Notes: generated by a model not told the origin, from the sequence alone. Shown: positions 23,175 through 45,593, numbered from the stretch's first letter. The stretch: 61,918 nt of DNA from an uncultured Fidelibacterota bacterium (GCA_902559415.1 CACEHW010000002.1:1-61918); one strand, 5' to 3'. Translations and numbers: made by a program.

Positions 23175-23831
23175 TTAGTAAGGTCCATATAGTTCCATTA
23201 TCCTTTTGGTCAGCGTCTCTTTTGTATGTCTAAATGATTCGGTGTTTTCCATTATTGCTTCAAATGCCTGATGTATCTCTTGTGTGTTTTCAACAATCAT
23301 CGTTTTATTATCTTTAATATCATCATCGAATTTTATTAATTGCTCTATAGCATTTTCAATAAGCTCTTCACGCTCTTCAAGCTTTTTGCGAAAAAGCTCA
23401 ATTCTTACATCAATCTCTGCAGATAATTCATCATAGTTACTGAAAATCAGATCATTGTTCTCTGATATTAGCTCTTGAGCCTCGTATATATCATTCTCAC
23501 GACTAATAGTTCTTATCTCATTCTCCCTTAGCCTATTCAGAAACTCTTCATTTTGCTTTCTGTCCTTATCAGCAACTGATCTAATAGAAAACTGAACTTT
23601 ATTTTTATCATAAGATGCGATCTTCCCGCTTCCATCCTCAACACCACCGATAAATGTAGTAATCTCCCCTAGCCTATTGTATGTTGATATGAAACCACCA
23701 TTTTGGTTGTCAACTACCCTAATAGAATTAACCGTAATATCACCCAAATTGCTTTTTTGTGAGGCGGTAAACATTACAAAGCTCACCGAAAGACAAATTG
23801 CAGTTATAAAACCATGAAAATATTGATTCAT
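23175..23831 (-). CDS. Anchor-family paralog P1: conserved N-terminal hydrophobic anchor, a short beta module and a long coiled coil
   Basis: The ATG at 23831 is preceded by GGAGA (ttGGAGAtaaatATG), so the TTG at 23843 in the track is probably not the start. N-terminus MNQYFHGFITAICLSVSFVMFTAS. The C-terminal half is heptad- and charge-rich. Confidence 0.7.
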   Translation of the reverse strand: MNQYFHGFITAICLSVSFVMFTASQKSNLGDITVNSIRVVDNQNGGFISTYNRLGEITTFIGGVEDGSGKIASYDKNKVQFSIRSVADKDRKQNEEFLNRLRENEIRTISRENDIYEAQELISENNDLIFSNYDELSAEIDVRIELFRKKLEEREELIENAIEQLIKFDDDIKDNKTMIVENTQEIHQAFEAIMENTESFRHTKETLTKRIMELYGPY

Positions 23832-23873
23832 ATTTATCTCCAACTATTTAATTTATTCAAAAGTTTACTGATC

Positions 23874-24482
23874 TTATTTAACCAAGGTATTAACAACACC
23901 CTTACCGGATTGATCTACTCCGACTACTGCTCTTGAGGATCCGATATTGTTATTTACAGATAATAAACCGGCGTCATTCTGATCAGTGCCAAGGAATATA
24001 GTTTCAGAACCTAACCCGTTATAGGTCTTTACCTGACCTCCATTGATTTTATTGGTACCAACAAAAACAGTTTCTTTTCCTCGAAGGTTAAAAAAAGTCA
24101 TTCCCCCACCACCTAGAGATAATGAGGACATACGCAAAGAAGATACCCCATTACGATCATTTAAAAGGAAACTACCTCCACTATTTCCATCAACACCAAT
24201 ATTAATAATTTCTTTTCCTTTTAAGCTTCTTAGTACTAATGCTGAGCCTTTTCTTTTGGATGAAAGTTCGATACCAGCTTTCTTACTTTTTAAAGACTTT
24301 AGCCAGAAATATGAATCCATCCTATCACTACCAATCTCACCAACTTGATTTCCGGCATTATCAACTATAGTGATTTTTTGGACTGTTAGATTATCTATTT
24401 TTCGCTTTTTTGCACCGACAAACAAAAAAAAACTAGTTGTTAAAATAACCGCAGAAATAAATCCAGTCAAATACTGATTCAT
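23874..24482 (-). CDS. Anchor-family paralog P2: N-terminal anchor plus Gly/Asn-rich beta-hairpin-like repeats
   Basis: aaGGAGtatatATG. N-terminus MNQYLTGFISAVILTTSFFLFVGAKK. The body repeats roughly as G-x-G-x-h-x-h-x-N-x-x-G-x-E-x-h-x-h-G. Confidence 0.7.
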   Translation of the reverse strand: MNQYLTGFISAVILTTSFFLFVGAKKRKIDNLTVQKITIVDNAGNQVGEIGSDRMDSYFWLKSLKSKKAGIELSSKRKGSALVLRSLKGKEIINIGVDGNSGGSFLLNDRNGVSSLRMSSLSLGGGGMTFFNLRGKETVFVGTNKINGGQVKTYNGLGSETIFLGTDQNDAGLLSVNNNIGSSRAVVGVDQSGKGVVNTLVK

Positions 24483-24543
24483 ATATACTCCTTATTAAAA
24501 AACTTAAAAACTACAGGTGAGAATGAATTTTTAAGAAAATATG

Positions 24544-25818
24544 TCAAGCAATTTCAAGTGGCTTCATTTTTGAAGAAACACTTTCAAAAAGAGCAGTCTC
24601 AAAGTCAACGTTGCTCTTATAAAAATCACCAAATACAGATTCCCAAATTGAGCTTTCTTCCATACATAAATAAAAGAATAGATCATTATGCCATGCTCTG
24701 AATTCATTGTAGACATTCGAAAATATCTCTGCCTTGACTTCTTTTGTATAAGATGATTTACCTACCGCATCTACCATTGGTATTTGGAGAACTTTACTTT
24801 TTAAACCTGCAGATCTGAGTTTATTAATTGCTGGTTTTATAAATGTGAGTGTTCCCATAGAGATCATTGCGATTTGGTGAGGTTCAAACATTGACATTAC
24901 TTTGTTAACAATATTTTTATAATCATTTTCATATCCCTCATAATAAACGATAGGATGAAAATGAAAACCAACAAGGACTCCTTTATCAGATAAACTTTTT
25001 GCACAGCTTAGTCTCTGATCTAAACTAGCAGTCCCATGCTCTTCATGATCAATAAATATCTGAGGATTTAAAGACCAACTAACAAAAACATTGTCCGGTA
25101 TATCTGTTTTTAACAAGTGGGCTATATTCTTTGATTTTGTTTTGAATTCTAAAATAATATTAGAATTCTCCCTCGCAAAATCTAACTGAGCATCTAGCAC
25201 CCCTTCTCTATTGCCTACAGCTAGTGAATCTGAAGACTGACCAGATCCAATGTGATAATTTTTATTTGGATCCAGAGGTATATTTGAGAGCTTTTCTTTC
25301 AGGTTCTTATCGATAGAAATTTTACCGTCGGTGTAAAATGTCTGAATACTGCAATAACTACAACCAAGGCTACATCCCTGGACAGCATCAATCGTCATTA
25401 AGTTACAACAAACAGTCTTCTCTGATGCGACAGGACACATACCAAAGACCTCATTATCCTGCTCACTTACTTGAATTTTTCTAGGAACAGGCCTTGGTAA
25501 ATTCTTTGTATCAACAGTATCATATTTAATTTTAGATGTTTTCAGTGAATTCCATTCACTCTTGACATGAGATATAACATCTTTTTTGGTCAATGGCCTG
25601 TTTTGAGAGATTTCAAAATTCTCTATACATTTTTTAACTCCAAATTCATCCCACATATAAAAATCTCTAGCTATAATTGAAAGCTGTCTAAGGTCTTGAT
25701 ATGAAAATCTATATTTTAAACTTAGATCTACAATATCTTGCCTATCAACGATATCCAAGTTCAGAAATACTTTGTCATTTTCAATTTGAGAAATTTTACT
25801 TTTAATACTACTATTCAT
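24544..25818 (-). CDS. Radical SAM protein of the spore-photoproduct-lyase (SplB / COG1533-like) family, with an N-terminal extension of about 130 aa
   Basis: CX3CX2C cluster motif GCSLGCSYCS. Downstream blocks (ILEFKTKS...HLL, SWSLNP...DHEEHGTASLDQRL, VGFHFHPIVYYEGYENDY, ISMGTLTF) are collinear with my recollection of B. subtilis SplB. Confidence 0.65.
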   Translation of the reverse strand: MNSSIKSKISQIENDKVFLNLDIVDRQDIVDLSLKYRFSYQDLRQLSIIARDFYMWDEFGVKKCIENFEISQNRPLTKKDVISHVKSEWNSLKTSKIKYDTVDTKNLPRPVPRKIQVSEQDNEVFGMCPVASEKTVCCNLMTIDAVQGCSLGCSYCSIQTFYTDGKISIDKNLKEKLSNIPLDPNKNYHIGSGQSSDSLAVGNREGVLDAQLDFARENSNIILEFKTKSKNIAHLLKTDIPDNVFVSWSLNPQIFIDHEEHGTASLDQRLSCAKSLSDKGVLVGFHFHPIVYYEGYENDYKNIVNKVMSMFEPHQIAMISMGTLTFIKPAINKLRSAGLKSKVLQIPMVDAVGKSSYTKEVKAEIFSNVYNEFRAWHNDLFFYLCMEESSIWESVFGDFYKSNVDFETALFESVSSKMKPLEIA

Positions 25819-25835
25819 CTAAGCCATCACTTTAG

Positions 25836-26330
25836 CTATTTTGCTAAAACCCTTGTCTCTAAGACAGGTAGGTCATTTGTTTCTTCAAGAATATGTACGG
25901 TTTTAACATCTTTAATTATGGTGCCGTAACCATCTGTGAGTGTTATTTCAAATTTATATTCACCTGGCCCAGCATTGAAAGCAACCCTAGGAGAACTTGG
26001 GTTTGGCTCTAAATAAACAGTTTTTCCGGCTACCTGTTTCCATTCAAAAATTAATTTATCTACCTTGTTAGGATCGTAGGAACCACCAGCATCAAGGATA
26101 ACAGTCGCTATATTTGTTTCTGGTCTGCCGTCGTGCTTTATTCTAACCTTAAAAATTTTATCATCGATCGCCTTAGCTTTTTCCCGATCTTCTTTTTGCT
26201 TTTTAAGTTCAGCAACCTTGCGCTCTTTTTTTGCGATTTTCTCTTCTTCAAAAACTTTTTCTAGCTCTATTAAACCAAGCAAAGCAGCAACACATAAAAC
26301 TAGAAATAGTACGGCTGTTCTTTCATTCAT
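25836..26330 (-). CDS. Membrane-anchored protein with a charged helix and a PKD-like Ig domain
   Basis: N-terminal TM AVLFLVLCVAALLGLI, a K/E-rich helix, then VILDAGGSYDPNKVDKLIFEWKQVAG...GEYKFEITLTDGYG (PKD-like pattern). Its stop lies 17 nt before the radical SAM start. Confidence 0.6.
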   Translation of the reverse strand: MNERTAVLFLVLCVAALLGLIELEKVFEEEKIAKKERKVAELKKQKEDREKAKAIDDKIFKVRIKHDGRPETNIATVILDAGGSYDPNKVDKLIFEWKQVAGKTVYLEPNPSSPRVAFNAGPGEYKFEITLTDGYGTIIKDVKTVHILEETNDLPVLETRVLAK

Positions 26331-26410
26331 AAACCAATATCCTGAATTATTTTATTTTTAAAACTATTTTTACAAATAATAACCAATATCTTATAGCTAC
26401 AGTAGCTCTA

Positions 26411-26551
26411 TTACTGCAGTATTCTACTAAAATCAAACATGTGTTTCAATAAGATTGCCATCCCAACATCATAAATAGGTTTAGCATCAGGAGCGCTATA
26501 ATTCCATAGAATTATCCCCAAAAGCCAAACTAAGTATTTTACTTTATCCAT
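26411..26551 (-). CDS. Possible unannotated small membrane protein (46 aa)
   Basis: The ATG at 26551 lies 5 nt after the stop of the Cas4-like gene. Hand translation is MDKVKYLVWLLGIILWNYSAPDAKPIYDVGMAILLKHMFDFSRILQ*. It is below the ORF-track size cut-off. Confidence 0.3.
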   Translation of the reverse strand: MDKVKYLVWLLGIILWNYSAPDAKPIYDVGMAILLKHMFDFSRILQ

Positions 26552-26556
26552 ATAAT

Positions 26557-27495
26557 TTAATTACCTATTTCTTTTTCATCATAACATATTGTCTGAAAGC
26601 TGCAATAACTGCAGGGGTAACTTTCTCTATCCTCACTTGCCAATGGGAATAGGTCAATTTCAGTTTTATTATTATCAACATCGGTCAACAATTCTTTCAT
26701 TGAATCAATACTATTTTCAATAAATCCCTTTGCCGAATCGATTAATCTATTTGTAGGCTTTACCTTAACAGGTAATTGTTGATTAAGATAAACATCAAAG
26801 AGTCTGATTAGATTTAAATCAACATCCCATTTTTGTTTAGCATATAATGCATAAATCGCCAATTGCACTTCATTTTCTTTCGCAACTTTGCCTGTTTTCC
26901 AATCATAAATATAGACCCGCTCACCATGTCTAATAGCAAAATCAAGCTTAACCCAAAGCTTAGCCCCATGAACCTCAAAAGAATCTAGGTCTTCAATCGC
27001 TAGCCACTGGGTATCAGACATAGTTTGAATAAAACGGTATGAATCTGAAGCAAAAAAACCATCAACACTATTTACCATTAGATCTCTAATGTCTAACAGC
27101 TCTTGATCAGACAGGCTCTTTTTATAATAATGCTCAAATAAATTAGCTTTCCACTTAGGACTGTCTTCCCACTCTTTATTTTTAGATTGAGCCCATGACT
27201 GCTTAAAGTTTTTAATAACATTTTCCTTAGACTTTTCTATGTCTGCTTTTCTTCCATAGCGCAAGATTTTAAGAGTTCTTTCCACCTCATCATGTACGAT
27301 AGAACCTGCGAGCATTGGTAGAGAAGTCATTTTATTTAGCATGTATAATTTTTTACTTAACTCATCTGCATCTTTATTCCAACCGCCCCAACTACCGTAG
27401 TAAGAATAGTAGTACTTACGCTTACAAGTATTAAAAGCATTATCCCTTGAGAAACTCCAGGAAAAATCATTTTTGAATTCTTTTTTATCAGCCAT
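26557..27495 (-). CDS. Cas4/AddB-type PD-(D/E)XK nuclease with a predicted 4-Cys Fe-S cluster
   Basis: N-terminal WSFSRDNAFNTCKRKYYYSY (single Cys), GSIVHDEVE, LDFAI...IYDWKTGK (D...D-x-K), QLAIYALYA (QxxxY), and C-terminal CSYCSFQTIC (CX2CX5C). Confidence 0.75.
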   Translation of the reverse strand: MADKKEFKNDFSWSFSRDNAFNTCKRKYYYSYYGSWGGWNKDADELSKKLYMLNKMTSLPMLAGSIVHDEVERTLKILRYGRKADIEKSKENVIKNFKQSWAQSKNKEWEDSPKWKANLFEHYYKKSLSDQELLDIRDLMVNSVDGFFASDSYRFIQTMSDTQWLAIEDLDSFEVHGAKLWVKLDFAIRHGERVYIYDWKTGKVAKENEVQLAIYALYAKQKWDVDLNLIRLFDVYLNQQLPVKVKPTNRLIDSAKGFIENSIDSMKELLTDVDNNKTEIDLFPLASEDRESYPCSYCSFQTICYDEKEIGN

Positions 27496-27497
27496 TT

Positions 27498-28205
27498 TTA
27501 GTTAAAACTATCTAACATGGTAATAATTTCATTTTTCATATAAGGCATGGAAAACGTTTCTACTCTATCATCTTTTAGCTGCGCAACCAACTGTCTGGCT
27601 ACTTGTATCCCATAATATTTTTCAAGGATGTATCTATATAGAGATAATTGCAATGCGTAGTGATTATACTTACAATCATCAATCTTACAACTCTCTTTTT
27701 TGATTCCTTTTTTACCATTAAATGAACTCTTATCGATACGTTTAGAAGTCTTCCAATCAATTAGTACATACTCACCTGTTTTTTTATCCATCATCAGTAT
27801 ATCAATTGTTCCTGCTATGCCAAGTTCTTTACTGTAAACTATAACTTCAGGAAAAGTTTCAATGTTAGGCTTGGAGATATAAGCACCAATCCATTTTGCA
27901 GCAACAATAGATTTGATATCCTTAGGGTCCGTTCCATCTTTTATCCAATTTTCAATTTCAAGATGAACCTCAGTGCCATATTCTCTAGCGAATTGCCACT
28001 GCTTCATAATTGACTCAGGTGTTTCACCAAAGTATTTAGGGACATTATTTACGAGATGATTTGCAATTTTAATTTCATCAAAGGGCTCAAAGAAGCTCCC
28101 TACAAAGGAAGTAACGCTGGTGAATGAAAAATCTGGCTGATCTAAGAGCTTGTACTCATGCTTATCGATTTCTAAGGTAATGTCATTATTATTAATTTTA
28201 TTCAT
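27498..28205 (-). CDS. PD-(D/E)XK (RecB-family/phage-exonuclease-like) nuclease lacking the Fe-S cysteines
   Basis: GTEVHLEIENW, GTIDILMMDKKTGEYVLIDWKTSK (D...D-x-K) and YALQLSLYRY (QxxxY). There is a 2-nt gap to each neighbouring gene. Confidence 0.7.
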   Translation of the reverse strand: MNKINNNDITLEIDKHEYKLLDQPDFSFTSVTSFVGSFFEPFDEIKIANHLVNNVPKYFGETPESIMKQWQFAREYGTEVHLEIENWIKDGTDPKDIKSIVAAKWIGAYISKPNIETFPEVIVYSKELGIAGTIDILMMDKKTGEYVLIDWKTSKRIDKSSFNGKKGIKKESCKIDDCKYNHYALQLSLYRYILEKYYGIQVARQLVAQLKDDRVETFSMPYMKNEIITMLDSFN

Positions 28206-28207
28206 AT

Positions 28208-28825
28208 TTAAGATTTTTTACCTGATTTAAACCACCCTCTATTACCAAATTTATCATACAATAAAACAGAACCATTTCCACTATTATTTGTACCATACTT
28301 TCCTGTAATTCTTCCATCCTTATTAAAAGTAGTTAGGGATTGAATCAAATGAAGAGATTCTTTACCTTGATCATCGAATAAGCTAAGCTTACCATAACCA
28401 CCATCATTACCACCTAATAAAGAAGTTAGTTTGGAGTTATTATTAAAAGTTGATAGTGTACCCTCACCCGATCTATTTTCGCCTAAAGAAGAGGTTTTAA
28501 TACCATTTTCATTAAAAGTATTTAGGTTTCCACCATTTTTCAAATAAACGCTACCTTTTCCTTCTTTACTTGAGTTTATACTAACTACCTCTACATTTTC
28601 AGAGTTATATATTTTTATTTTCCCATTTTCTATTGAAATAAGTTTATCACCTTCTTTATCTACAATCTTCAAAATCCCACCGAATCCATTTTTATCAGTA
28701 ATCGTAACTGAATTCGCAATAATATCACCAAAATGCTGAGATCCTCCAAACTGAGCTCCCATAAAAATAAAAACAGAACAAAGTAAAAGTGCAGATGTTG
28801 TAAATCCTTTTAAATAATTAACCAT
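28208..28825 (-). CDS. Anchor-family paralog P3: N-terminal anchor plus Gly/Asn-rich beta-hairpin-like repeats
   Basis: The ATG at 28825 is preceded by GGAGA (ttGGAGAaaaacATG), so the TTG at 28837 is probably not the start. N-terminus MVNYLKGFTTSALLLCSVFIFMGAQ. The repeats resemble those of P2. Confidence 0.7.
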   Translation of the reverse strand: MVNYLKGFTTSALLLCSVFIFMGAQFGGSQHFGDIIANSVTITDKNGFGGILKIVDKEGDKLISIENGKIKIYNSENVEVVSINSSKEGKGSVYLKNGGNLNTFNENGIKTSSLGENRSGEGTLSTFNNNSKLTSLLGGNDGGYGKLSLFDDQGKESLHLIQSLTTFNKDGRITGKYGTNNSGNGSVLLYDKFGNRGWFKSGKKS

Positions 28826-28861
28826 GTTTTTCTCCAAACAGTTTTCAATAGTTATGAAATA

Positions 28862-29137
28862 TTATATTTTTTTCACTTCGTCATATGAATAATTATTGTC
28901 TTTATCCTCTATAGAGTCACCGTGCTCATGTAATGATATTTTATAACCATCAACGACATCAATCTCCTTTATTCCATCTATGTGCATTTTTTTACTTTTG
29001 TATTCTGGTATTACTTTCGCTTTTGCTTTTGCCTCTTTTACATCACTCGCTACCACAAAATAGTTAGTGTGCGACTCATAAAAACCACTAGAAACATTAT
29101 CATCATAAAAACCTGCATGGACCAAGTATAACTTCAT
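28862..29137 (-). CDS. Small DUF1543-like protein
   Basis: 91 aa. MKLYLVHAGFYD...ESHTNYFVVASDVKEAK...HIDGIKEIDVVDGYKISL matches my recollection of the DUF1543 pattern (E-x-H-D/T...hhha, hIDgw.ev..vdGYkI). Unverified. Confidence 0.45.
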   Translation of the reverse strand: MKLYLVHAGFYDDNVSSGFYESHTNYFVVASDVKEAKAKAKVIPEYKSKKMHIDGIKEIDVVDGYKISLHEHGDSIEDKDNNYSYDEVKKI

Positions 29138-29219
29138 GGAAGACTCCTTATTTATAAATATTTAAAATTAGATAGCTTGAGAAAATAATTAGAATCACTT
29201 AAAAGAATATGTTTAACTC

Positions 29220-29735
29220 TTAGATACTTTTAATTAGGATAGATAAAAGTATTAACACTACTATAATAACCTGCACCACAGTTTCATTCCCAAAAATTTT
29301 TTCAGGACTGAAATTTGCAATCTTAAAATCAAAATTATCAAATCGAGATTCTGATAAAGGGCTAACTGAAGGAGGAGGAACTTCATCTTTTAATATCCTG
29401 TCCATATAGGAATCCTTTGGCGATTCTCCATAGATATTTGTGTTTGGATCACTATCTAAAAACATAAAATAAAAATAAATAAAACCTAAGAGCGGTACGT
29501 TTGCGGCTAGTACCCAAAGGCCATTTCTACCAGTATCATGTAAACGGCGAATTCCGACACCCACAGCCGGACAAACGGTTAACACTAAGTAAGATATCAA
29601 GGCAATTTTACCAACAAAGAATAAAGCAAAGCATATAATGATATGAACCAGGGTAAACATCCAGAATTCTTTTCTTCTAGCTCTGCCTTGGAAGTTTAAA
29701 TAATTATTAAATACTACTTCAATATACCATCTCAT
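29220..29735 (-). CDS. DUF805 family inner-membrane protein with an extended C-terminus
   Basis: GRARRKEFWMFTL and IRRLHDTGRNGLW motifs. An extra C-terminal TM segment is present. Confidence 0.7.
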   Translation of the reverse strand: MRWYIEVVFNNYLNFQGRARRKEFWMFTLVHIIICFALFFVGKIALISYLVLTVCPAVGVGIRRLHDTGRNGLWVLAANVPLLGFIYFYFMFLDSDPNTNIYGESPKDSYMDRILKDEVPPPSVSPLSESRFDNFDFKIANFSPEKIFGNETVVQVIIVVLILLSILIKSI

Positions 29736-29820
29736 TTTCAGATCCTATATGTTTATAATTAATTAAAATAAAGGTATTTAAAATAATCTTATTTTTCAAT
29801 TAATTCTAATACTTGCTATT

Positions 29821-30621: not shown

Positions 30622-30663
30622 GTAATCATAAGGTAAATAGTGAACTAAATAAAATCCACTATT

Positions 30664-31770: not shown

Positions 31771-31834
31771 TTTTTCCTCTTTAGTTAATAATTAAATGTA
31801 TTGTTTTTTTAACAGTAATGTAATAAAAATTTTA

Positions 31835-35476: not shown

Positions 35477-35495
35477 TTTAAGGTAGATATATTAT

Positions 35496-37767: not shown

Positions 37768-37772
37768 ATAAA

Positions 37773-38141
37773 TTATTTATCTGCATACTTATCAGCTCCT
37801 AAAAAATGAATTGATATATATTTTTCTTTTCCAACTACCCAACTATCATGAGGTCTTGAAGATACATAAAAAATATCTCCTTTATTTACAGTATGTATTT
37901 CCCCATCTTTGAAATCAACCGTAGCACTACCAGATAACACCATCCCTAAATGCTCTACTTCACAAAATTTTGTACCACTTAAAGGAGATACATCCTCTGA
38001 CCATTTCCAGCCTGGTTCGTATACTGCTTTACCAATTGTCATTGTAGGTAGATTTACCAATTCAAACTTACCTTTTTCAAATTTTCTTATTTCATCAGGG
38101 TTGTCAAAGTTTTTAAGAATTATATCTAGATTATTAATCAT
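37773..38141 (-). CDS. Cupin domain protein
   Basis: 122 aa with a beta-barrel pattern (CEVEHLGMVLSGSATVDFKDGEIHTVNKGDIFYV). Confidence 0.6.
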   Translation of the reverse strand: MINNLDIILKNFDNPDEIRKFEKGKFELVNLPTMTIGKAVYEPGWKWSEDVSPLSGTKFCEVEHLGMVLSGSATVDFKDGEIHTVNKGDIFYVSSRPHDSWVVGKEKYISIHFLGADKYADK

Positions 38142-38174
38142 ACTACACTCCCAATCATAAAAAGTAGAAAATTA

Positions 38175-38552
38175 CTATTGGTAATGAACTTCACTTACTT
38201 TACCGATTACAGACCAACCATAATTGCCGTAAGCATTATTTACTATTATCGAACCATTTCCATTAAAACCATCTCCATACCAAGCACCTAAGTTTACAAC
38301 TTTATAGCCCTTATTATTCTTAATTTGAATAGAGCCCGCCTCGCGCACGGTTGAACCAACGAAGAGTATTTCTTCTTTTTCTTTATTATAAAAACGTATT
38401 GATTCTGAATTGATAACAACCTTCCCTTTATCATCTTCAATAATAATAGGAAGGTTAACCTCTTCACTAGAACTACTATCACTGCTAATAAAAAAATACA
38501 AACTAGTGGCAAGGCACAAAGCGGTAAAAAACCCTGTAAAATATTGTCTCAT
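38175..38552 (-). CDS. Anchor-family paralog P4: N-terminal anchor plus a short Gly/Asn-rich beta module
   Basis: gaaAGGAattgtATG. N-terminus MRQYFTGFFTALCLATSLYFFISS, then IIIEDDKGKVVI...IQIKNNKGYKVVNLG...GNGSIIVNN. Confidence 0.7.
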   Translation of the reverse strand: MRQYFTGFFTALCLATSLYFFISSDSSSSEEVNLPIIIEDDKGKVVINSESIRFYNKEKEEILFVGSTVREAGSIQIKNNKGYKVVNLGAWYGDGFNGNGSIIVNNAYGNYGWSVIGKVSEVHYQ

Positions 38553-38579
38553 ACAATTCCTTTCTTCTAAAATAGATTT

Positions 38580-39788
38580 CTAACTGAATACTTTTTCTGA
38601 TGCTTTTATTCCAGATAAAACCGCGCCTTCAATGCTACCATAAAAACTATGATCTCCTGCAATAATAATTCCCTTAGGTGTTGGTTGCGAGTTTGATTGA
38701 AAAAAATTATATCTTTGCATTATTGTAGCATTTTTAATGCTAAAATTTTTCACATAATCATAGTTTGACTCATTCCCGCCAAAATAATTCGATAATCTTT
38801 TTTTTATTAAAGCAATATCTAACTTATCTTTTGAATTATGACCAATAATTGAGATGGAAAGCAGGTTGTTAGATTTACAATAATGTTTACTAATTTTATT
38901 TAGTACTGCAATGTTGTTGATTATGTTATCCTTAGGAAAAAGATGAATATACTTCCCGTTTTTAATATCTATATCTGAAACAAAATAAAGATTTTCTACA
39001 GAATTATATTTAACAGGATTTAAACCAATTTTTTCATGACTCCCGCCTGTTAAAACAATATTACTAGCCTGAAGTGATAAACCATTATTAAAAATCAATG
39101 CTTTCCCATCTTCAATTTTTTCAAGAGAGCGATTAAATAAAACTCTATCTGAATTTATATTTTTTGCTATTAAATCTGGTATTGTTTGCATTCCATTTTG
39201 AGGAATACATGCTAGGCCTTTGCTAAAATTTGAGAAAACATATTTAAAAAATTTTGAAGATGTTATAAGGTCTTTTTCAAGAAAAATACCTGCAAAAAAT
39301 GGATTAAAAAAAAGTTCAATAAACTTCTCTGAAAACTTTCTTTTTTTTAAAAAATCAATAGTTGTCATATCCTCAGATATATCTTTTTGAATATCATAGT
39401 TAGATAAATCAAATATCAAAGAAAGCACTCTCAGCTTATCTTTAAAAGAGGACAACGAAGAAAATAGGCTTGCAAATAATTGTTTTGGATCTCTTAGTGG
39501 GTCTGAAATTAATTTAAAGGATGAACCATCGTGAATAACAGCGCCAGGTTTAAACATTCTCAGTTTAATCTCATTTTCATCAAACAACCGAATTGTATTC
39601 TGATAAGCAGTATTAAACACCTGAAAACCGATGTCATAAATATTACCGTTTTCATAGATAGAACCTACCCGGCCACCAAGCCTATTTGATTTTTCTATGA
39701 GTATATAATCTCTTTTCTGTTTCTCTAAGCTAACAGCACAGGATAACCCTGAAAGGCCACCACCAATAATCACAGTATCAACTTTCAT
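38580..39788 (-). CDS. FAD/NAD(P)-binding oxidoreductase (amine oxidase / desaturase-like)
   Basis: N-terminal dinucleotide fold DTVIIGGGLSGLSCA...IEKSNRLGGR. C-terminal IIAGDH...GSIEGAVLSG. Confidence 0.75.
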   Translation of the reverse strand: MKVDTVIIGGGLSGLSCAVSLEKQKRDYILIEKSNRLGGRVGSIYENGNIYDIGFQVFNTAYQNTIRLFDENEIKLRMFKPGAVIHDGSSFKLISDPLRDPKQLFASLFSSLSSFKDKLRVLSLIFDLSNYDIQKDISEDMTTIDFLKKRKFSEKFIELFFNPFFAGIFLEKDLITSSKFFKYVFSNFSKGLACIPQNGMQTIPDLIAKNINSDRVLFNRSLEKIEDGKALIFNNGLSLQASNIVLTGGSHEKIGLNPVKYNSVENLYFVSDIDIKNGKYIHLFPKDNIINNIAVLNKISKHYCKSNNLLSISIIGHNSKDKLDIALIKKRLSNYFGGNESNYDYVKNFSIKNATIMQRYNFFQSNSQPTPKGIIIAGDHSFYGSIEGAVLSGIKASEKVFS

Positions 39789-39885
39789 TGTATTTATAGT
39801 TATTTTACTCCCACAAGAAGTTCAATATTAATTAAGATAAGGAATTGAATTACACCATTAATTATTGTCTTCATTAAGGTATTAT

Positions 39886-40530
39886 ATGAAAAGATCTGAA
39901 AAAGCAATTATCATTGGAAAAACTCTTGATGAGCTATATCCGAAAACTCCTATTCCGCTTGATCATGATAGCTCTTATACCCTTCTAGTTGCAGTAATGC
40001 TCTCTGCACAAACAACAGATAAAAAAGTCAATGAAGTAACACCTAAACTATTTAGCATCGCTAATACACCACAGAAAATGGCAGAGTTAAGTACTGATAC
40101 TATTCAAGAAATCATAAAAGAAATAGGACTAGCTCCTACTAAAGCAAAAAATCTTCATAAAATGGCTCTTCAGCTCATTGAAGGAGGAGGAGTTAAACAA
40201 GATTGGGATTATTTAGAAAGCTTAGCTGGTGTTGGCCATAAAACAGCAAGCGTTGTAATGTCACAGTGGTATGGTGTACCAGCATTCCCTGTTGATACCC
40301 ACATTCATCGTTTAGCTTATAGATGGGGATTATCAAATGGTAAAAATGTGGAAAAAACAGAATTAGATCTAAAAAAAATATGGCCAGAAGATCAATGGAA
40401 TCGTAGACACCTCCAAATTATATTTTTCGGAAGAGAGCACTGCCCTGCTAGAAACCACAATCTAAAAGATTGTTTAATTTGCTCGTGGGCAGCTTCACAG
40501 AAAAGGATTACACAAGAAGCTAAAAAATAA
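39886..40530 (+). CDS. nth: Endonuclease III (HhH-GPD DNA glycosylase/AP lyase)
   Basis: LVAVMLSAQTTDKKVN, HhH LAGVGHKTASVVM, VDTHIHR, and a C-terminal Cys cluster. The ATG at 39886 is preferred over the TTG at 39865. Confidence 0.85.
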   Translation: MKRSEKAIIIGKTLDELYPKTPIPLDHDSSYTLLVAVMLSAQTTDKKVNEVTPKLFSIANTPQKMAELSTDTIQEIIKEIGLAPTKAKNLHKMALQLIEGGGVKQDWDYLESLAGVGHKTASVVMSQWYGVPAFPVDTHIHRLAYRWGLSNGKNVEKTELDLKKIWPEDQWNRRHLQIIFFGREHCPARNHNLKDCLICSWAASQKRITQEAKK

Positions 40531-40550
40531 TTACAACTAGAATAGATATA

Positions 40551-41813
40551 CTAGATTACTGCTTTCGTATTCCTTAAGAAATACAACCAAACAGCAAGCC
40601 TCAATATTGTAGAAAACATCATTACGCCATGTATAATGGTTTCAAGTTGAATTAGGGAATAAAAACTACTTTCATATTTAGTTAGAACCCCACCAATCAA
40701 ACCCCCTATAAAAATAGACAATCCTCTAAAAAACACTCTCTTTGAAGTGATTTTAATCATTTCTTTACTCTTCATATGTTCATAAAGACGGTTATCTAAA
40801 GCTAATGCTCTACCACTAAACATAAGAGATGCCAAAGATGCTATTACAATAGATCCTGGAAGGATTAACTCTTTCGGCAGATAATATAAAAAAACCCAAA
40901 ATACTGGTAAAATAGCTATCCAAAAACTTGTAAAACGAATAGTTGTATAGGTACCACTGTGATCAATTCTTTTTCCCCAATACCTCATACTAAACAAACC
41001 TAGGACCTGGCTAACATTAATTAATATTGCTAACTCGATATAATCGAAATTTAAATCCCTCAACCAATAAACCATCATTAAGGGACCAGAAACATGAAAA
41101 GAAAATTCTGATAAAGAATCATAAGTAATAAAACGTTTCAATTCTTTAGTCATCTCTACTGAACTTTCGACAATTTCAACTTTTTCATCTTTTGAAGTAT
41201 CAATAGGTTCATATTGTCTCTTTATATAATACATGCATCCAAAATTTGCAACCATGCCAATACTAAAAATAAAAATAAAACCATTAAATGTATTTGTATC
41301 TTCGAACGAGTTTAGAACTGTGCCTGCGATCAAGGAGGATATAAGCATGAAAATTCGTACCACTTGCGATCTATTACCAAAATATCTGCCTCTTAGCCTA
41401 CCCGGAACTAGATAACCCATCCATGAAGTCCATGGAGACATCTGAGACATTGCTACTGCGTAATAAATACATATAAATCCAAGTAATAGAAGGAAATTAC
41501 CAGACGAATAGCCAGCATAGAGAATTAATGGGATAATAATGGTCTGAATAAACTTAAGTAGTATTATAAGAGTTTTTCTAGAACGTAAAATACCATAAAA
41601 CCATCCTGTTAGATTTTGAAATAATGCTCCAAAAAAAATTGGGAAGGTAGATAGAATCGAGATCTCGTAACTGGAATATTTTAGAAATTCAAAAAAGGCT
41701 CCAAAATATGTCTCAACCATACCATACATAACAGCCCACCAAGAACCCTCAACGGTTGAGGTTTTGAGTGATGACCTTATTTGTCTAGACTCTCGTCTTC
41801 TTCTTTGTGACAT
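40551..41813 (-). CDS. MFS-type transporter-like polytopic membrane protein
   Basis: 420 aa with about 12 hydrophobic spans in two halves. Substrate unknown. Confidence 0.55.
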   Translation of the reverse strand: MSQRRRRESRQIRSSLKTSTVEGSWWAVMYGMVETYFGAFFEFLKYSSYEISILSTFPIFFGALFQNLTGWFYGILRSRKTLIILLKFIQTIIIPLILYAGYSSGNFLLLLGFICIYYAVAMSQMSPWTSWMGYLVPGRLRGRYFGNRSQVVRIFMLISSLIAGTVLNSFEDTNTFNGFIFIFSIGMVANFGCMYYIKRQYEPIDTSKDEKVEIVESSVEMTKELKRFITYDSLSEFSFHVSGPLMMVYWLRDLNFDYIELAILINVSQVLGLFSMRYWGKRIDHSGTYTTIRFTSFWIAILPVFWVFLYYLPKELILPGSIVIASLASLMFSGRALALDNRLYEHMKSKEMIKITSKRVFFRGLSIFIGGLIGGVLTKYESSFYSLIQLETIIHGVMMFSTILRLAVWLYFLRNTKAVI

Positions 41814-41849
41814 TAAGTTGAGGCTCTCTAATTCAATAGCTTTTAAAAA

Positions 41850-44606
41850 TTAACCAGTCGTCTGCATGGCAGCAGCGATATGATTAATGCTGACAAAAAT
41901 TGCATTATCAAGTTGTATATCGCTTTTATCTGAATGTTTGTATCTATGTAACAATTCAGCTTGTGCTATATTTAAAATATCAGTGAATGGGTTTCTAAAT
42001 CGAATGGAGTTATCTATTATTTTATTGCGTTCTAATAAAGTGTTATATCCCGTTATTTTTTTATAGGCATTTAAAATTAAAGAATACTCTTTTTCAATTG
42101 AAAAGTGAAAATCTCTATCCTTTTTTGAGCTTGCATATAAAATAGAAGTATTTAATCTAGATCTAGCCATCTCAAAAGACATATTATCCAAGAGCTGTTT
42201 AAAAAACTTAGATTTGATAAAACTTATTTTCAATTTTTCAAGCTTATTTGGATTGTTGACCGCTTTATTTAAAGCAATTCCCATACCATACCAGCCACTG
42301 AGATTATATCTAATTTGCGTCCAAGAAAATACCCAAGGGATAGCTCTTAAGTCATCAAAGCTAATAATATGCTCATCAATTTTTTTTCTTGAGGCTGGTC
42401 TAGAAGTAATTGGAATCTTACTAATATGGTTTATAGGCGTAGTATTTAATAAGAAATACCAGCAATCTTCATTAATAATATCTTTTTTATAGGTCGTGTA
42501 AGACTGTTCTATAATATCTTTGATAAAACCATTATCGTTATCATCCTCAAATGAATTTTGATGTAACGAAGTTATTTGCGCGCTAATGATTTGTTCTAAA
42601 TGTCTTTTAGCAATTCTTGCAGAGCCATAACGATAGTTAATCACCTCGCCTTGCTCAGTAAAACGAATTTTCCCGTTCTGACATTCTTTAGGAAGACTTA
42701 AAATAGCTTTGTTACTTTTACCTCCTCCTCTGCTTATTGAACCTCCTCGGCCATGAAACAACATAAATTCAACGCCACGACTATTCATCAAATTAGAAAT
42801 TTCAATTTGACATTTATTCAAACAATAATTCGCCATACCAAAACCACCATCTTTATTGCTATCAGAATATCCTAGCATGATTTCTTGAAAGTTACTTTTA
42901 TTTTCTAAGTGCACCTTGTAGAGATTATTATCAATTAAATCTGCAAGTAGGTTTGGAGTATTTTTTAGATCACCGATTGTTTCATATAATGGGATAACAT
43001 TTAGGAAAGACTTATAGCCTCTAGTACCAGACTCTACTAAACCATTTATTTTACCAAGAAATAATACTTCAAGAACATCGCTTGTAGCGTGAGTCATGCT
43101 AATTATATAAGTTGATATTAAACTTTTATCAATATCATAAACTTCTTTGATAATTTTAAATGTGTTTATAACCTCATTTGAAATATGTGATAATTTATTT
43201 TTATCAATAATAATTTCGTTATTAGCAGATAAAATAAGACTTTCTAAAAGATCACACTTTTGTGTTTCATTTAACTCACCATATTTTATATCTGGCTTTG
43301 CATGTTTAATAATTTCATCAATTGCATATTCATGTATTTCAGAATGTTGGCGTATATCTAAGCTAACGAAGTTCAACCCGAAAGTCTTTGACCTAACTAA
43401 AATATCCTTAAGAATTCCATTTAATAGATGATCGTCATCAGAAATTTTCAATAAAAATTCTGAGATAATATTTAAATCATTTTGAAATTTTTCTAAGTTA
43501 TATACCATTTTTTTAGAAAAAATAGAATCATTATAATCGATTAATTTTTGTTTTATACATAAAACCTTTAACCTTAGAGGTTCATATTGATAACGTTGTA
43601 TTATATTTTTATCGATACTAACTATATTAAGATCCTTTTCAATAGATTGAGCTAGAGTAATACTATCCACCGATTCATCTACATGAATACTCAAATCATC
43701 AAATAAATTATCAAGGTCAACTAAATATTTATTTACAAGTACACTTATTTGTTTTTTGATTGCATATCTTGTTATCTCACTAGTTACATTAGGATTACCA
43801 TCTCTATCACCACCAACCCAGCTATGAAATTTAAGAATATCTCCTAAAAAAACTTTTTCTTCATAATATTCTTCAAAAGAAGATTCAATATCATTTGACA
43901 GTTCTGAGATTGTATACCAGAGTGTATCAATTGTACTTTTAATTGTATTATTTATCTCATCTTTTGCAGTAATGCTATGTGATCTAACGTCATCAGTTAA
44001 CATTATTAATTTGCAGAGTCTAACAGCTTCGTTCTCTGATTTTTTTAAATCTATATTACTTAATTCATCATCTAAGATAGTGTCAATTATTTGAAGTAAC
44101 TTTTTTTGTTTTTTTATAATTGAAGGCCTTCTGGTCTCAGTTGGATGAGCGGTAAAAGTTGGGTGTATTTTTATACTACCAATAATTTTTTTTGCTTCGC
44201 CTATATTGATATTATTTTTCTTTAATGATTTTATAGCAGATGGTATTGAATCAACTTTAGGATTGTCCTTATCTGATATTCTATCCCTTTCTTTATTTAT
44301 AGCAATAATCTCATTTAACTCTGCTTGGTTCAAAAGGTGAAAATAAGTTCCTATAAATTTCATCAACTTATTAATATGATTTAGTGGCCAATTTTTGAAT
44401 GTTTTACCTATCTTTTCTTTTAATATATTTTCATCGATTGTTTCCGAAATAATATCAATCATAAAAGTAGTAAGCTGATGGTGCTTTTCATCTGGCAAAC
44501 CGCTGGAAACAGTTTCTAATAACTTAACAATATAGGAAGACCTTGCTTTCATCCTATCAGATAAAGAACAACTATCAGCAAATTTTAAAATTTGTTTTTC
44601 TAGCAA
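41850..44606 (-). CDS. ppc: Phosphoenolpyruvate carboxylase
   Basis: HPTFTAHPTETRR, GYSDSNKDGG, FHGRGGSISRGGG, and C-terminal ...MQTTG. TTG start. Confidence 0.95.
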   Translation of the reverse strand: MLEKQILKFADSCSLSDRMKARSSYIVKLLETVSSGLPDEKHHQLTTFMIDIISETIDENILKEKIGKTFKNWPLNHINKLMKFIGTYFHLLNQAELNEIIAINKERDRISDKDNPKVDSIPSAIKSLKKNNINIGEAKKIIGSIKIHPTFTAHPTETRRPSIIKKQKKLLQIIDTILDDELSNIDLKKSENEAVRLCKLIMLTDDVRSHSITAKDEINNTIKSTIDTLWYTISELSNDIESSFEEYYEEKVFLGDILKFHSWVGGDRDGNPNVTSEITRYAIKKQISVLVNKYLVDLDNLFDDLSIHVDESVDSITLAQSIEKDLNIVSIDKNIIQRYQYEPLRLKVLCIKQKLIDYNDSIFSKKMVYNLEKFQNDLNIISEFLLKISDDDHLLNGILKDILVRSKTFGLNFVSLDIRQHSEIHEYAIDEIIKHAKPDIKYGELNETQKCDLLESLILSANNEIIIDKNKLSHISNEVINTFKIIKEVYDIDKSLISTYIISMTHATSDVLEVLFLGKINGLVESGTRGYKSFLNVIPLYETIGDLKNTPNLLADLIDNNLYKVHLENKSNFQEIMLGYSDSNKDGGFGMANYCLNKCQIEISNLMNSRGVEFMLFHGRGGSISRGGGKSNKAILSLPKECQNGKIRFTEQGEVINYRYGSARIAKRHLEQIISAQITSLHQNSFEDDNDNGFIKDIIEQSYTTYKKDIINEDCWYFLLNTTPINHISKIPITSRPASRKKIDEHIISFDDLRAIPWVFSWTQIRYNLSGWYGMGIALNKAVNNPNKLEKLKISFIKSKFFKQLLDNMSFEMARSRLNTSILYASSKKDRDFHFSIEKEYSLILNAYKKITGYNTLLERNKIIDNSIRFRNPFTDILNIAQAELLHRYKHSDKSDIQLDNAIFVSINHIAAAMQTTG

Positions 44607-44664
44607 AATAAAATTGTATTTTTTTTTAATAAATCGGGTATTAATAATAAAAAGTAATCACATA

Positions 44665-44913
44665 CTATTTAAAATGTTTAAGTTGAAAATGATAATTATT
44701 TTTTCTCCATAATAAGATTGTAAATAAACGTAAACAAACGCCTAGAGTTATAATTAAAACCACTAATGGAGTTAAACCGATAATAAATATTGCAAAAAAA
44801 TGCTGATATAACATACAAATCGTAATGCCTAATGCAATTCCAAATATCATTGAAATAAAATGTGAAAGCTGTGCAAACCTCTTAAATGATTTACTGATTT
44901 GTATCTTTTCCAA
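44665..44913 (-). CDS. Small hypothetical membrane protein
   Basis: 82 aa with two hydrophobic spans. Confidence 0.4.
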   Translation of the reverse strand: MEKIQISKSFKRFAQLSHFISMIFGIALGITICMLYQHFFAIFIIGLTPLVVLIITLGVCLRLFTILLWRKNNYHFQLKHFK

Positions 44914-44933
44914 AACTAATCTCCTAAATAAAA

Positions 44934-45122
44934 TTAAATATCATTCTTCTTTTGGTCTTTGATATCATTAAATATCGAAAGTAATAGCCATATAAATATC
45001 ATGAATGGAACCACATTTTCATCTTTTATAGGAATAATTCCAATTATACTTATAAACGAAAGGAATAAACATACATCAGCAAAAATCTCACCTCTAAGGA
45101 ACCATTTTTTAAATCGATTCAT
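44934..45122 (-). CDS. Small hypothetical membrane protein
   Basis: 62 aa with two hydrophobic spans. Confidence 0.35.
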   Translation of the reverse strand: MNRFKKWFLRGEIFADVCLFLSFISIIGIIPIKDENVVPFMIFIWLLLSIFNDIKDQKKNDI

Positions 45123-45224
45123 ACCTTAATCTACTAAAACAAATTCCGCATTAAAGTGAATCATTGTTTTTATATGAATAAATTTATGATAATATAATTA
45201 TTACTTTTTGAAAAGGAGCTTAAT

Positions 45225-45593
45225 ATGAAATCATATTTCCAAGGAATAATAACTGGTGCTGTATTTACAGTCTCAATTTTAATTTTTATGGGACAAACAA
45301 CATTAGATAAACAAATAAAAAGCCAATTAAAAGAATTAGAGTCCTTACAAAAGGAGATTGATTTATTAGGTAAATCAATGTCAGAATCTTTTAATGAAGA
45401 TCAAAAATCAAATTCAGAAATAAAAAATAGTTTTCTTATATCAGGTGAAAAACGTTTTGAAAAGTTGGAAGTAAAACTAGATAAGATATATACTTTATTA
45501 GATGATAATATCGATAAAATTTTTACTTATACTACTGATAACAATGGCATCTTGCAGGATATATATACTGACGGTGTTCCTTGCAATAATTAA
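45225..45593 (+). CDS. Anchor-family paralog P5: N-terminal anchor plus a coiled coil
   Basis: aaAGGAGcttaatATG. N-terminus MKSYFQGIITGAVFTVSILIFMGQ, followed by a heptad-like segment KQIKSQLKELESLQKEIDLL. It is the only family member on the plus strand. Confidence 0.65.
   Translation: MKSYFQGIITGAVFTVSILIFMGQTTLDKQIKSQLKELESLQKEIDLLGKSMSESFNEDQKSNSEIKNSFLISGEKRFEKLEVKLDKIYTLLDDNIDKIFTYTTDNNGILQDIYTDGVPCNN

Follow-up and report, generated by a model that had tools for sequence, protein, structure and literature searches.

An unannotated, phylum-restricted protein family of Marinimicrobia with a conserved N-terminal membrane-spanning segment

The window analyzed here is a 61,918-nucleotide stretch of DNA from an uncultured marine Fidelibacterota bacterium (Marinimicrobia/SAR406; GCA_902559415.1, CACEHW010000002.1:1-61918). 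Amid housekeeping genes it holds five open reading frames, to which an initial annotation had drawn attention: P1 (23175..23831, 218 aa), P2 (23874..24482, 202 aa), P3 (28208..28825, 205 aa) and P4 (38175..38552, 125 aa) on the minus strand and P5 (45225..45593, 122 aa) on the plus strand. All five were confirmed at these positions and their closely similar N-termini read exactly as quoted there, following the pattern M-x-x-Y-[FL]-x-G-[FI] and continuing into a hydrophobic helix. This conserved segment, residues 1-24, is encoded at 23760..23831 in P1 (MNQYFHG plus the hydrophobic helix), 24411..24482 in P2, 28754..28825 in P3 and 38481..38552 in P4, all on the minus strand, and at 45225..45296 (plus) in P5; besides the sequence, AlphaFold2 models for P1 and P3 and the N-terminal HMM score for P5 were used for its assignment. 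A six-frame scan of the window for the motif returned only P1-P5 as ORF starts; three further matches, either internal to a longer ORF or in frames broken by stops, do not represent gene starts. The GGAG-type ribosome-binding sites claimed for all five genes were found for P1, P2, P3 and P5; P4 is preceded by AGGA instead. For P1 and P3 the mechanical longest ORF begins at an upstream TTG, and the ATG start is backed by the family alignments.

A typical member of the family is tripartite: it combines a ~40-residue N-terminal module with the consensus MKQYFTGFFTAvCLTASvFLFMG[AS]-QNKNLGDIxVNSIxV, 2-10 copies of a β-hairpin repeat unit of ~23 aa, and the end motif G-x-x-GW-x3-GK. In P3 the module is followed by ~7 β-hairpin repeats and the C-terminal end motif GNRGWFKSGK (28220-28276, minus), nine repeat cores being detected, a count reached by 0 of 2000 shuffles. 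P4 contains an acidic linker and two repeats between the module and its C-terminal end motif GNYGWSVIGK (38199-38258, minus). P2 carries KKRK directly after the module, then degenerate β-hairpin repeats with four cores at ~23 aa spacing, and has no GW-GK end motif. In P1 the module leads via 2-3 β-hairpin repeat cores into a helix (coiled coil) of ~130 residues with the invariant C-terminus LYGPY. P5 proceeds from the conserved N-terminal segment to a coiled coil (residues 26-105; 45300-45539, plus) and lacks β module, repeats and end motif. The h-x-h-x-D-x-x-G module is found in P1-P4 and absent from P5, as originally proposed, and the repeats described as Gly/Asn-rich for P2-P4 are real, although their period is ~23 aa instead of 20 and P1 has 2-3 cores as well. 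The coiled coils attributed to P1 and P5 are corroborated by the heptad periodicity of both proteins (p<0.0002 for P1, p=0.0006 for P5 residues 26-105) and by the AlphaFold2 model of P1, which shows strands 36-41/46-51/57-61 and a helix at residues 83-215. The model of P3 contains 14 strands, with pLDDT values of 84-91 over residues 50-140. Model confidence was moderate overall (mean pLDDT 74-76) and poor around the juxtamembrane region.

The N-terminal similarity exceeds the background of the window: pairs of P1-P5 share 7-13 of 24 residues (mean 9.7), whereas 17 other hydrophobic N-termini of the window share 3.1 on average and 8 at most. Identity among the five genes amounts to 0.33-0.54 at third codon positions versus 0.58-0.83 at second positions; the conservation therefore acts on the protein, and neither a DNA/RNA element nor gene conversion of recent date accounts for it. 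A trivial explanation would be that low-GC hydrophobic N-termini are alike by composition and that the five genes are unrelated, and indeed pairwise BLASTP of the five proteins without residues 1-24 gave nothing below E=0.3. Profile searches, intermediate sequences and common end motifs, however, tie P1-P4 together without the TM segment. After removal of residues 1-24, 75 of 84 representatives still matched at least one window ectodomain, 52 of these 75 matching at least two of P1-P4. For example, the truncated representative P0152 recovered P3 (8e-17), P1 (2e-15), P2 (2e-10) and P4 (8e-6), the E-values of these TM-less matches referring to a five-sequence database. An ectodomain-only HMM ranked P3 (1.6e-7) and P1 (1.2e-5) at the top of 249 window ORFs. 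Consequently, the matches survive masking of the hydrophobic segment for P1-P4, whose ectodomains are joined via intermediate family members, and the initial annotation's caveat of a purely compositional similarity no longer applies. P5 is joined to the family through its N-terminus only; with an N-terminal HMM of 26 columns, built with P5-like sequences left out, it reached 30.8 bits, compared with 6.9 bits for the best other window ORF. Together, the N-terminal profile matches, the TM-less ectodomain links and the P5 score refute the compositional reading, to which we attach next to no probability.

In a set of 1.84 billion representatives, the search with an N-terminal profile (A2), a step suggested at the outset, recovered 232 protein clusters with E<=1e-3, of which 82 also passed E<=1e-10; the matches nearly always start at residue 1. 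The pattern M[KRN]QYF[TS]GF was confirmed at 19 loci in 185,579 species genomes. All taxon-named loci among them belong to Candidatus Marinimicrobia or Neomarinimicrobiota, and the remaining ones go by 'uncultured bacterium' or 'bacterium' alone. No model of Pfam, NCBIfam or PHROGs matches the family, so that it does not coincide with a family characterized there. The five genes are true paralogs belonging to a real, unannotated and phylum-restricted family with a conserved membrane-spanning head. P1 has 68 orthologs (identity 55-92%), P2 has 46 and P3 has 25 homologs; orthologs of P4 (P0121, P0133, P0137-P0140) and P5 (P0231, P0245, P0260) were identified as well. P3, P2, P1 and P4 remain syntenic in relatives that share 57-65% identity with the window in P2, and this retention together with the low third-codon identity indicates that the paralogs are old. 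In the member neighborhoods examined, no conserved neighbor gene pointing to a partner was found.

The initial annotation had regarded the N-terminus as unusually conserved, which holds among the paralogs and not within orthologous groups, where it is no more conserved than the remainder of the protein. The TM core does not stand out within these groups either; in P3 the identity of residues 12-24 is 0.33 versus 0.65 overall. What is unusual is that the N-terminus is the sole part alignable across all paralogs, where its conservation goes well past that of ordinary signal anchors. Its position-specific features were counted in 126 representatives chosen for having Y4 and G7. K or R stands at position 2 in 107 of them (Asn in the window's P1 and P2), position 8 nearly always holds F (84), L (29) or I (10), and position 12 is V/A/I/T/L/M; G occupies position 23 in 100 and A or S position 24 in 121. 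Consensus positions 8-24 contain no acidic residue, the uncharged stretch of the segment covers ~21 residues, and the polar region begins at Q/K25. AlphaFold2 predicted one helix for this segment (residues 2-25 in P1 and 2-26 in P3), on which the conserved Y4, G7, T10/A11, L14, S17, F21 and G23-[A/S]24 fall on one face. In line with this, the information content of positions 4-24 shows a periodicity peak at 105-110 degrees (~3.4-3.5 residues); a permutation test gave p=0.0008 over positions 4-24 and a weaker p=0.017 over positions 8-24. The small or polar residues G7, A11, T10, S17 and [A/S]24, plus L14 and F21, line this face at i,i+4 and i,i+7 spacing.

These findings are best explained, with a probability of about one half, by ancient and syntenically fixed paralogs of small single-pass membrane proteins, so far of Marinimicrobia (SAR406) only, which keep their N-terminal segment as a helix-packing anchor. 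The module would start with a cytoplasmic stub of 3-4 residues (M-K/N-Q-Y), cross the membrane as one helix retained as a signal-anchor, and end with the juxtamembrane strand NLGDIxVNSIxV, with the N-terminus on the inner side of the membrane and the C-terminus on the outer. An anchor is suggested by the ~21 uncharged residues of the segment, long in comparison with the h-regions of the window's ordinary signal peptides (about 11-13 residues by our own reading), by its single predicted helix and by the KKR following it in P2 and its orthologs. The flanking charges (mean 1.84 K/R after the helix versus about 1 before) leave a charge-based topology ambiguous, and for P2 alone the charge rule would predict a cytoplasmic C-terminal domain. 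Further points against the anchor are the fit of G23-[A/S]24 and the following Q/K to a signal peptidase I site, the modest conservation of the TM core among orthologs, the weaker periodicity of positions 8-24, the lack of a conserved neighbor gene and the moderate AlphaFold2 confidence. The conserved face may act as a small-xxx-small motif combined with a Ser/Thr heptad 'zipper' and pack on other helices within the membrane; the putative partners would be further copies of the protein itself, other paralogs or a single partner common to all. The arrangement of G7-x3-A11 and T10-x6-S17-x6-[A/S]24 on one face resembles the GxxxG/small-xxx-small and serine-zipper association motifs known from glycophorin A, a likeness of sequence pattern only. 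The proteins might have a role in the cell envelope.

Alternatively, and with less probability, the segment could be an ordinary Sec signal that signal peptidase I removes behind G23-[A/S]24, releasing soluble periplasmic or secreted repeat and coiled-coil proteins that begin at Q/K25. Signal conservation of this kind might then reflect a special targeting need, by analogy to the YSIRK-G/S motif of Gram-positive surface proteins, which likewise is a conserved motif in an N-terminal export signal preceding differing exported parts. The present motif is a different one, its hydrophobic stretch is longer, its cleavage is putative, and the host is no Gram-positive coccus but belongs to Marinimicrobia, a candidate phylum encoding T9SS-type cargo proteins. 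The frequent G23 and A/S24 and the polar region from Q/K25 onward would suit a signal peptidase I site, with an appropriate -1 residue in 96% of the representatives and an appropriate -3 residue (I/T/V/L) in about half. K/R2 would provide the charge of the n-region, and 24 residues is a typical length of Gram-negative signals. Furthermore, AlphaFold2 placed a low-confidence linker directly after residue 25, and on a PorK/GldK-like domain of one relative the module replaces the usual lipoprotein or signal sequence. On the other hand, Met, which is rare at -3 of signal peptidase I sites, occupies this position in 64 of 126 representatives, followed by I (24), T (16), V (14) and L (7). The h-region would comprise 17-21 residues, exceeding that of the window's other secreted proteins. 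P2 and all its orthologs carry KKR[KTS] at +1 to +4, and positive charges after the signal block Sec export, as is known from E. coli work. Moreover, helical conservation on one face is no property of ordinary signal peptides, and the orthologs of P1, P2 and P4 conserve their first 24 residues as much as the mature part, or more.

The initial annotation had also entertained, as a speculation, a class III (prepilin-type) signal. On this view, G7 would mark the cleavage site of a prepilin peptidase, and the paralogs would build a common pilus-like fiber from their remaining helices, much as major and minor pilins do, which have just the N-terminal helix in common. The family resembles type IV pilins and pseudopilins in that a few initial residues with Gly at their end precede F/L/I (123 of 126 representatives, a set selected for Y4 and G7) and a hydrophobic helix, the sole region that the divergent paralogs have kept in common. 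Pilin sets likewise combine divergent paralogs with a shared N-terminal helix, and the conserved face would suit packing in a fiber core. This reading nevertheless failed most tests and is improbable. No Glu/Asp occupies +5, and neither the five window proteins nor four typical relatives matched the prepilin N-methylation models TIGR02532 and PF07963 even with a threshold of E<=10, the sole related match being ComGG on P5 (E=0.03, 14.9 bits versus a cutoff of 40). The leader M-K-Q-Y-F-T-G contains the hydrophobic Y4 and F5, predicted to lie inside the helix, K2 is its only charge, and K/R is absent at -2 in about 90% of the representatives. Cleavage after G7 would leave just 17 hydrophobic residues, and the predicted helix ends at residue 25-26 without reaching into the head domain, giving way to a flexible linker with a β-hairpin array behind it rather than an alpha-beta head. 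Some family members (e.g. P0223, P0236, P0259) lack the M-x-x-Y-x-x-G start altogether. The canonical pilin N-terminus G-F-T-L-I-E was absent from 451 kb of related DNA, and no pilus genes adjoin any family member.

According to the anchor reading, the module would bear interchangeable outward parts, usually a meander sheet of 2-10 hairpin repeats, closed by the end motif in P3 and P4 and left without it in P2. The ~21-23 aa hairpin units with their [FY]-[ND]-x-x-G-[KR] core resemble YD/RHS repeats (PF05593, TIGR01643) and Borrelia OspA, and Foldseek matched the predicted repeat fold of P3 to OspA single-layer sheets, including OspA variants, and to RHS/YD shells (E about 1e-5, TM-scores of only 0.2-0.3). 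Matches to RhsA, TcB/TcC and teneurin shells ranged from E 4e-5 to 3e-3 with TM-scores of 0.1-0.3, and OspA sheets scored equally. The RHS_repeat and YD_repeat models gave no significant match in the five proteins, 97 family representatives and four regular relatives (best YD-repeat score: TIGR01643 on L014, E=4.3, 8 bits). Unlike YD/RHS proteins, the family members are small (100-310 aa), carry an N-terminal TM helix and have no RHS core, toxin tip or closed shell.

Other outward parts would be a PorK/GldK-like FGE-sulfatase domain in one relative and the long coiled coils of P1 and P5, and these cases together suggest that the N-terminal module is interchangeable. In the relative (L023), the one such case, which lies on a contig of 3.1 kb, residues 1-37 are fused to a complete FGE-sulfatase domain (6e-82). 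Its best NCBIfam match is GldK (1.6e-46), the model for the periplasmic T9SS ring lipoprotein PorK/GldK, which has the FGE-sulfatase fold, at 159 bits and thus far under the family cutoff of 350; in contrast to PorK/GldK, its N-terminus is the family module and not a lipoprotein signal. P1 and P5 share with the phage i-spanin Rz and with FtsB/FtsL, which cross the inner membrane once and bear periplasmic coiled coils, the succession of an N-terminal TM helix and a long heptad-periodic helix. The matches to these proteins were weak and stayed below threshold (E=0.034 for the Rz-like spanin of PHROG and 0.086 for ftsL_broad), and the P1 helix, up to its LYGPY end, is family-specific and highly conserved.

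The five ORFs of the initial annotation, namely P1 (23175–23831, minus strand, 218 aa), P2 (23874–24482, minus strand, 202 aa), P3 (28208–28825, minus strand, 205 aa), P4 (38175–38552, minus strand, 125 aa) and P5 (45225–45593, plus strand, 122 aa), were all found where it had placed them, and the N-termini it quoted are identical to those of the translated ORFs. The GGAG-type ribosome-binding sites described there for each gene were recovered upstream of P1, P2, P3 and P5, whereas P4 is preceded by AGGA. In a six-frame scan of the window the motif M-x-x-Y-[FL]-x-G-[FI] starts an ORF only in P1–P5, corresponding to five family copies in 62 kb; three further matches fall inside a longer ORF or into frames broken by stops and do not mark the beginning of a gene. 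Among the first 24 residues each pair of P1–P5 shares 7 to 13 identical residues (mean 9.7), compared with a mean of 3.1/24 and a maximum of 8 for 17 other hydrophobic N-termini of the window. The paralogs agree closely at second codon positions (identity 0.58–0.83) and poorly at third positions (0.33–0.54), indicating selection on the protein. The N-terminal likeness of the paralogs does not stem from recent gene conversion or from a nucleic-acid element.

After removal of residues 1–24, pairwise BLASTP among P1–P5 gave no significant match. Homologs were obtained for P2 (46, with 52–94% identity), for P3 (25) and with a joint profile (475); all of them are metagenomic, carry no informative name in the source databases and contain no credible Pfam domain, and some single ortholog clusters comprise hundreds of metagenomic sequences. 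A profile of the N-terminal region (64 positions), searched exhaustively against 1.84 billion cluster representatives, matched 232 clusters at E ≤ 1e-3, 82 of them even at E ≤ 1e-10, and nearly always from residue 1 of the protein onwards. Furthermore, 75 of 84 family representatives stripped of residues 1–24 matched at least one window ectodomain in BLASTP and 52 matched at least two, with E-values computed for a five-sequence database. For example, representative P0152 without its first 24 residues matched P3 (8e-17), P1 (2e-15), P2 (2e-10) and P4 (8e-6). An HMM built from nine ectodomains ranked P3 (1.6e-7) and P1 (1.2e-5) at the top of the 249 window ORFs. Since the intermediates and the ectodomain HMM link them, P1–P4 are, on the sequence evidence, homologous past the anchor; the similarity of these four thus survives masking of the transmembrane segment, a check proposed in the initial annotation, by way of profiles and intermediates. 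P5 is linked to the family through its N-terminus only; this tie is specific, as P5 reached 30.8 bits against a 26-column HMM from whose training P5-like sequences had been left out, versus 6.9 bits for the best other window ORF. A purely compositional origin of the N-terminal likeness is excluded, as it is contradicted by the profile matches, the ectodomain links, the HMM score of P5 and the background identity of 3.1/24.

The consensus of 126 representatives, which were chosen to have Y4 and G7, reads M-K-Q-Y-F-T-G-F-F-T-A-v-C-L-T-A-S-v-F-L-F-M-G-[A/S]-Q-N-K-N-L-G-D-I-x-V-N-S-I-x-V. Full-length members from related loci consist of three parts: this N-terminal module, 2–10 tandem repeats, each about 23 residues long and built on the core h-x-h-[FY]-[ND]-x-x-G (G-x-G-x-L-x-T-Y-N-x-x-G-K-x-T-x-Y-L-G-T in regular members), and a C-terminal motif, D-G-x-h-x-L-x-D-x-x-G-x-x-G-W-x3-G-K, which 18 of 29 locus-encoded members possess, P3 and P4 among them. 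Repeats of about 20 aa had been described for P2, P3 and P4; they are present, but their cores lie about 23 residues apart, and P1 has cores as well (nine in P3, four in P2, three in P1, two in P4, none in P5). None of 2000 shuffles matched the nine cores of P3. The AlphaFold2 model of P3 (19 sequences; mean pLDDT 74, 84–91 over residues 50–140) comprises one helix at residues 2–26, a poorly predicted linker and 14 strands, while that of P1 comprises a helix at 2–25, three weak strands and a continuous helix at 83–215 with a pLDDT of about 85–92. The coiled coils proposed for P1 and P5 are corroborated by heptad periodicity (P1 residues 83–215, P5 residues 26–105) and, for P1, by the long predicted helix, which is strongly conserved and terminates in an invariant LYGPY. 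The P1 model gave no Foldseek match below E = 1.

A 346-aa protein of a Neomarinimicrobiota MAG (L023:1762–2799, plus strand) carries residues 1–37 of the module, followed directly by a complete FGE-sulfatase domain (6e-82) for which NCBIfam offers PorK/GldK, a periplasmic T9SS lipoprotein, as the best match (1.6e-46, below cutoff); the fusion was seen once, on a contig of 3.1 kb. Because this protein joins the module to an FGE-sulfatase domain, the module behaves as a self-contained N-terminal unit able to bear different C-terminal parts. In the metagenomic protein P0302 a P1-type N-terminus (MKQYFSGFISAICLSISFVM...TLGDIVVNSI) precedes a P3-type body, which is either an assembly chimera or the result of recombination at the conserved GDIxVNSI motif. 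A subgroup of family members (P0205, P0223, P0236, P0246, P0259, P0266, P0268 and P0282) is devoid of M-x-x-Y-x-x-G; here a second conserved N-terminal motif, M-x-x-[IL]-D-[IP]-[KR]-S-h-h-I-G, precedes the helix and an NLGDITVNSI strand.

Within positions 4–24 the most informative residues are Y4, G7, T10/A11, L14, S17 and F21, together with G23-[A/S]24. Conservation over this stretch is periodic with a spectral peak at 105–110 degrees, i.e. 3.3–3.4 residues per turn; the permutation p-value is 0.0008 for positions 4–24, two of which were fixed by sequence selection, and 0.017 for positions 8–24, which played no role in that selection. A small-xxx-small pair (G7, A11) and a Thr/Ser heptad (T10, S17, [A/S]24) meet on the conserved face, and both resemble established helix-association patterns. 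The uncharged stretch spans about 21 residues versus about 11–13 for the h-regions of ordinary signal peptides in the window, by our own reading, and both the P1 and P3 models place residues 2–25 in a single helix. Because of the periodic face, the long uncharged stretch and the single predicted helix, we favour a signal-anchor that stays in the membrane and packs through its conserved face against other helices; the partners may be copies of itself, paralogs or one common partner.

Alternatively, the segment could be a Sec signal cleaved after G23-[A/S]24, a reading that we regard as possible if somewhat doubtful: G23-[A/S]24 followed by Q/K agrees with the −1 rule in 96% of the representatives, yet half of them carry Met at −3, the h-region is long, KKR directly follows the segment in P2 and all its orthologs, and the orthologs of P1, P2 and P4 conserve residues 1–24 at least as strongly as the rest of the protein. 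Positive charge such as KKR right after the signal blocks Sec export in E. coli. The initial annotation had speculated about a class III (prepilin-type) signal. In favour of it are the Gly followed by F/L/I and an N-terminal helix common to divergent paralogs, a pilin-like pattern. We consider this improbable, since there is no acidic residue at +5 and no HMM match, the 'leader' is itself hydrophobic, only 17 hydrophobic residues would follow the putative cut in a helix that ends at residue 25, and some family members lack the motif entirely. Moreover, 451 kb of related DNA contained no canonical pilin N-terminus, and pilus genes were absent from the surroundings of members. A lipoprotein signal was rejected as well: Cys13 occurs in 72 of the 126 representatives, but positions −3 to −1 read T-A-[V/I/L] without a lipobox, and P2 and P5 have no Cys13.

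Topology as predicted from charge is ambiguous, with about one K/R before the helix and a mean of 1.84 K/R and 1.57 D/E in the next 15 residues. P2, which lacks K/R ahead of the helix and has KKRK behind it, is predicted to have a cytoplasmic repeat domain, and P4, with R2 ahead and DSSSSEE behind, to have the opposite orientation. Residues 25–28, straight after the hydrophobic segment, read KKR[KTS] in P2 and all its orthologs, and the segment is preceded by scarcely any positive charge or none; this is at odds with the predicted topology of P4 and with export by means of a cleaved signal.

The pattern M[KRN]QYF[TS]GF occurred 66 times in 185,579 species-representative genomes, and 19 of these matches could be confirmed as relatives; about 58 chance matches are expected by our own rough estimate, compatible with the 47 unconfirmed ones. 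All confirmed loci with a taxon name derive from Candidatus Marinimicrobia/Neomarinimicrobiota MAGs, the rest being titled 'uncultured bacterium' or 'bacterium'. The order P3 ... SPL-like radical-SAM gene – P2 – P1 – giant adhesin is retained in relatives at a P2 identity of 57–65%, indicating that the paralogs are old and positionally stable; the related locus L006 has a truncated 125-aa ORF at the expected position of P4. Among the genes neighbouring members no family recurs beyond this local synteny. P1-type genes lie directly upstream of giant cadherin-like T9SS cargo genes in two lineages, and such genes are frequent in these genomes. We considered a functional tie to the adjacent giant T9SS adhesins and rejected it as unsupported: no more than two independent contexts show the genes side by side, and adhesin genes of this sort are widespread in these genomes. 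In the window, the giant ORFs at 11643–15194 (minus strand, 1183 aa) and 15261–23006 (minus strand, 2581 aa) are located directly downstream of P1 and share a C-terminal ...NYPNPFNP... sequence; their counterparts in related loci combine cadherin-like, Big_9 or PA14 repeats with T9SS sorting tails (Por_Secre_tail, FlgD_ig). Several Marinimicrobia loci (L010, L014, L015, L017, L018, L022) encode near members Y-x-N-G/W-rich repeat proteins (family F2) that by eye look like MORN variants (YwqK-like).

The initial annotation did not recognise the family, and neither do the databases: when the five window proteins, 97 representatives and four regular relatives were compared with Pfam, NCBIfam and PHROG, no family scored above cutoff, YD-repeat models gave no sequence match in the same set, and a literature search found no account of the family. 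Isolated TspO, HemN_C and L24 matches among the representatives probably reflect chimeric metagenome ORFs, and a marginal PDB-sequence profile match to the T4 gp45 clamp (E = 0.007) was judged spurious. Foldseek matched P3 to PDB structures of engineered OspA single-layer beta-sheets and of RHS/Tc/teneurin YD-repeat shells (E of about 1e-5 to 1e-3); TM-scores against OspA/RHS structures were only 0.2–0.3, consequently the resemblance is limited to a local hairpin meander. In size and aromatic/Gly pattern we take the hairpin repeats to resemble carbohydrate- or wall-binding hairpin repeats. The family lies outside the pilins, the YD/RHS repeat proteins and any Pfam, NCBIfam or PHROG family tested. 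Single-pass membrane or exported repeat proteins are nothing unusual in general; what distinguishes this family, undescribed and confined to one phylum, is an interchangeable N-terminal module under unusual constraint.

In the dark ocean Marinimicrobia (SAR406) rank with the most abundant bacteria that have not been cultured, and to our knowledge almost nothing is known about the construction of their cell envelope. With a probability of roughly 0.15, the module (some 40 residues, helix plus NLGDIxVNSI strand) is an undescribed phylum-specific signal, either for sorting to one envelope machine or for helix-mediated hetero-oligomer assembly. In the former case hairpin-repeat arrays, coiled coils and a PorK/GldK-like domain would all be sent to one dedicated machine, in the latter differing proteins would co-assemble via their helices into a hetero-oligomeric membrane-rooted structure; either role would be functionally analogous to, and unrelated to, pilin N-termini or YSIRK signals. 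If true, this would establish envelope proteins of a new class in the phylum and offer a route to the machine recognising the module. If the segment is a retained anchor only, the outcome is a new domain-of-unknown-function family defined by the N-terminal module, the ~23-aa hairpin repeat and the GW-GK end motif. A conserved, interchangeable module with one invariant helical face is a concrete, testable starting point.

Elsewhere in the window, two adjacent ORFs at 51228–52961 (minus strand, 577 aa) and 52977–53732 (minus strand, 251 aa) sit between a dnaJ-like ORF, which they immediately follow, and a 170-aa ORF; neither has a Pfam match at E ≤ 0.01, and a hydrophobic segment is located at the N-terminus of the 251-aa protein. 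Arranged head-to-head with P5 are two small and very hydrophobic ORFs at 44665–44913 (minus strand, 82 aa) and 44934–45122 (minus strand, 62 aa), where the AT content of the window is highest (GC 0.26). The DNA is low in GC throughout (about 26–40% per 2-kb window). GC skew is negative in nearly all 2-kb windows (1–60000), the cumulative skew dropping almost monotonically to −3.8, and most genes are on the minus strand, which places the window within one replichore.
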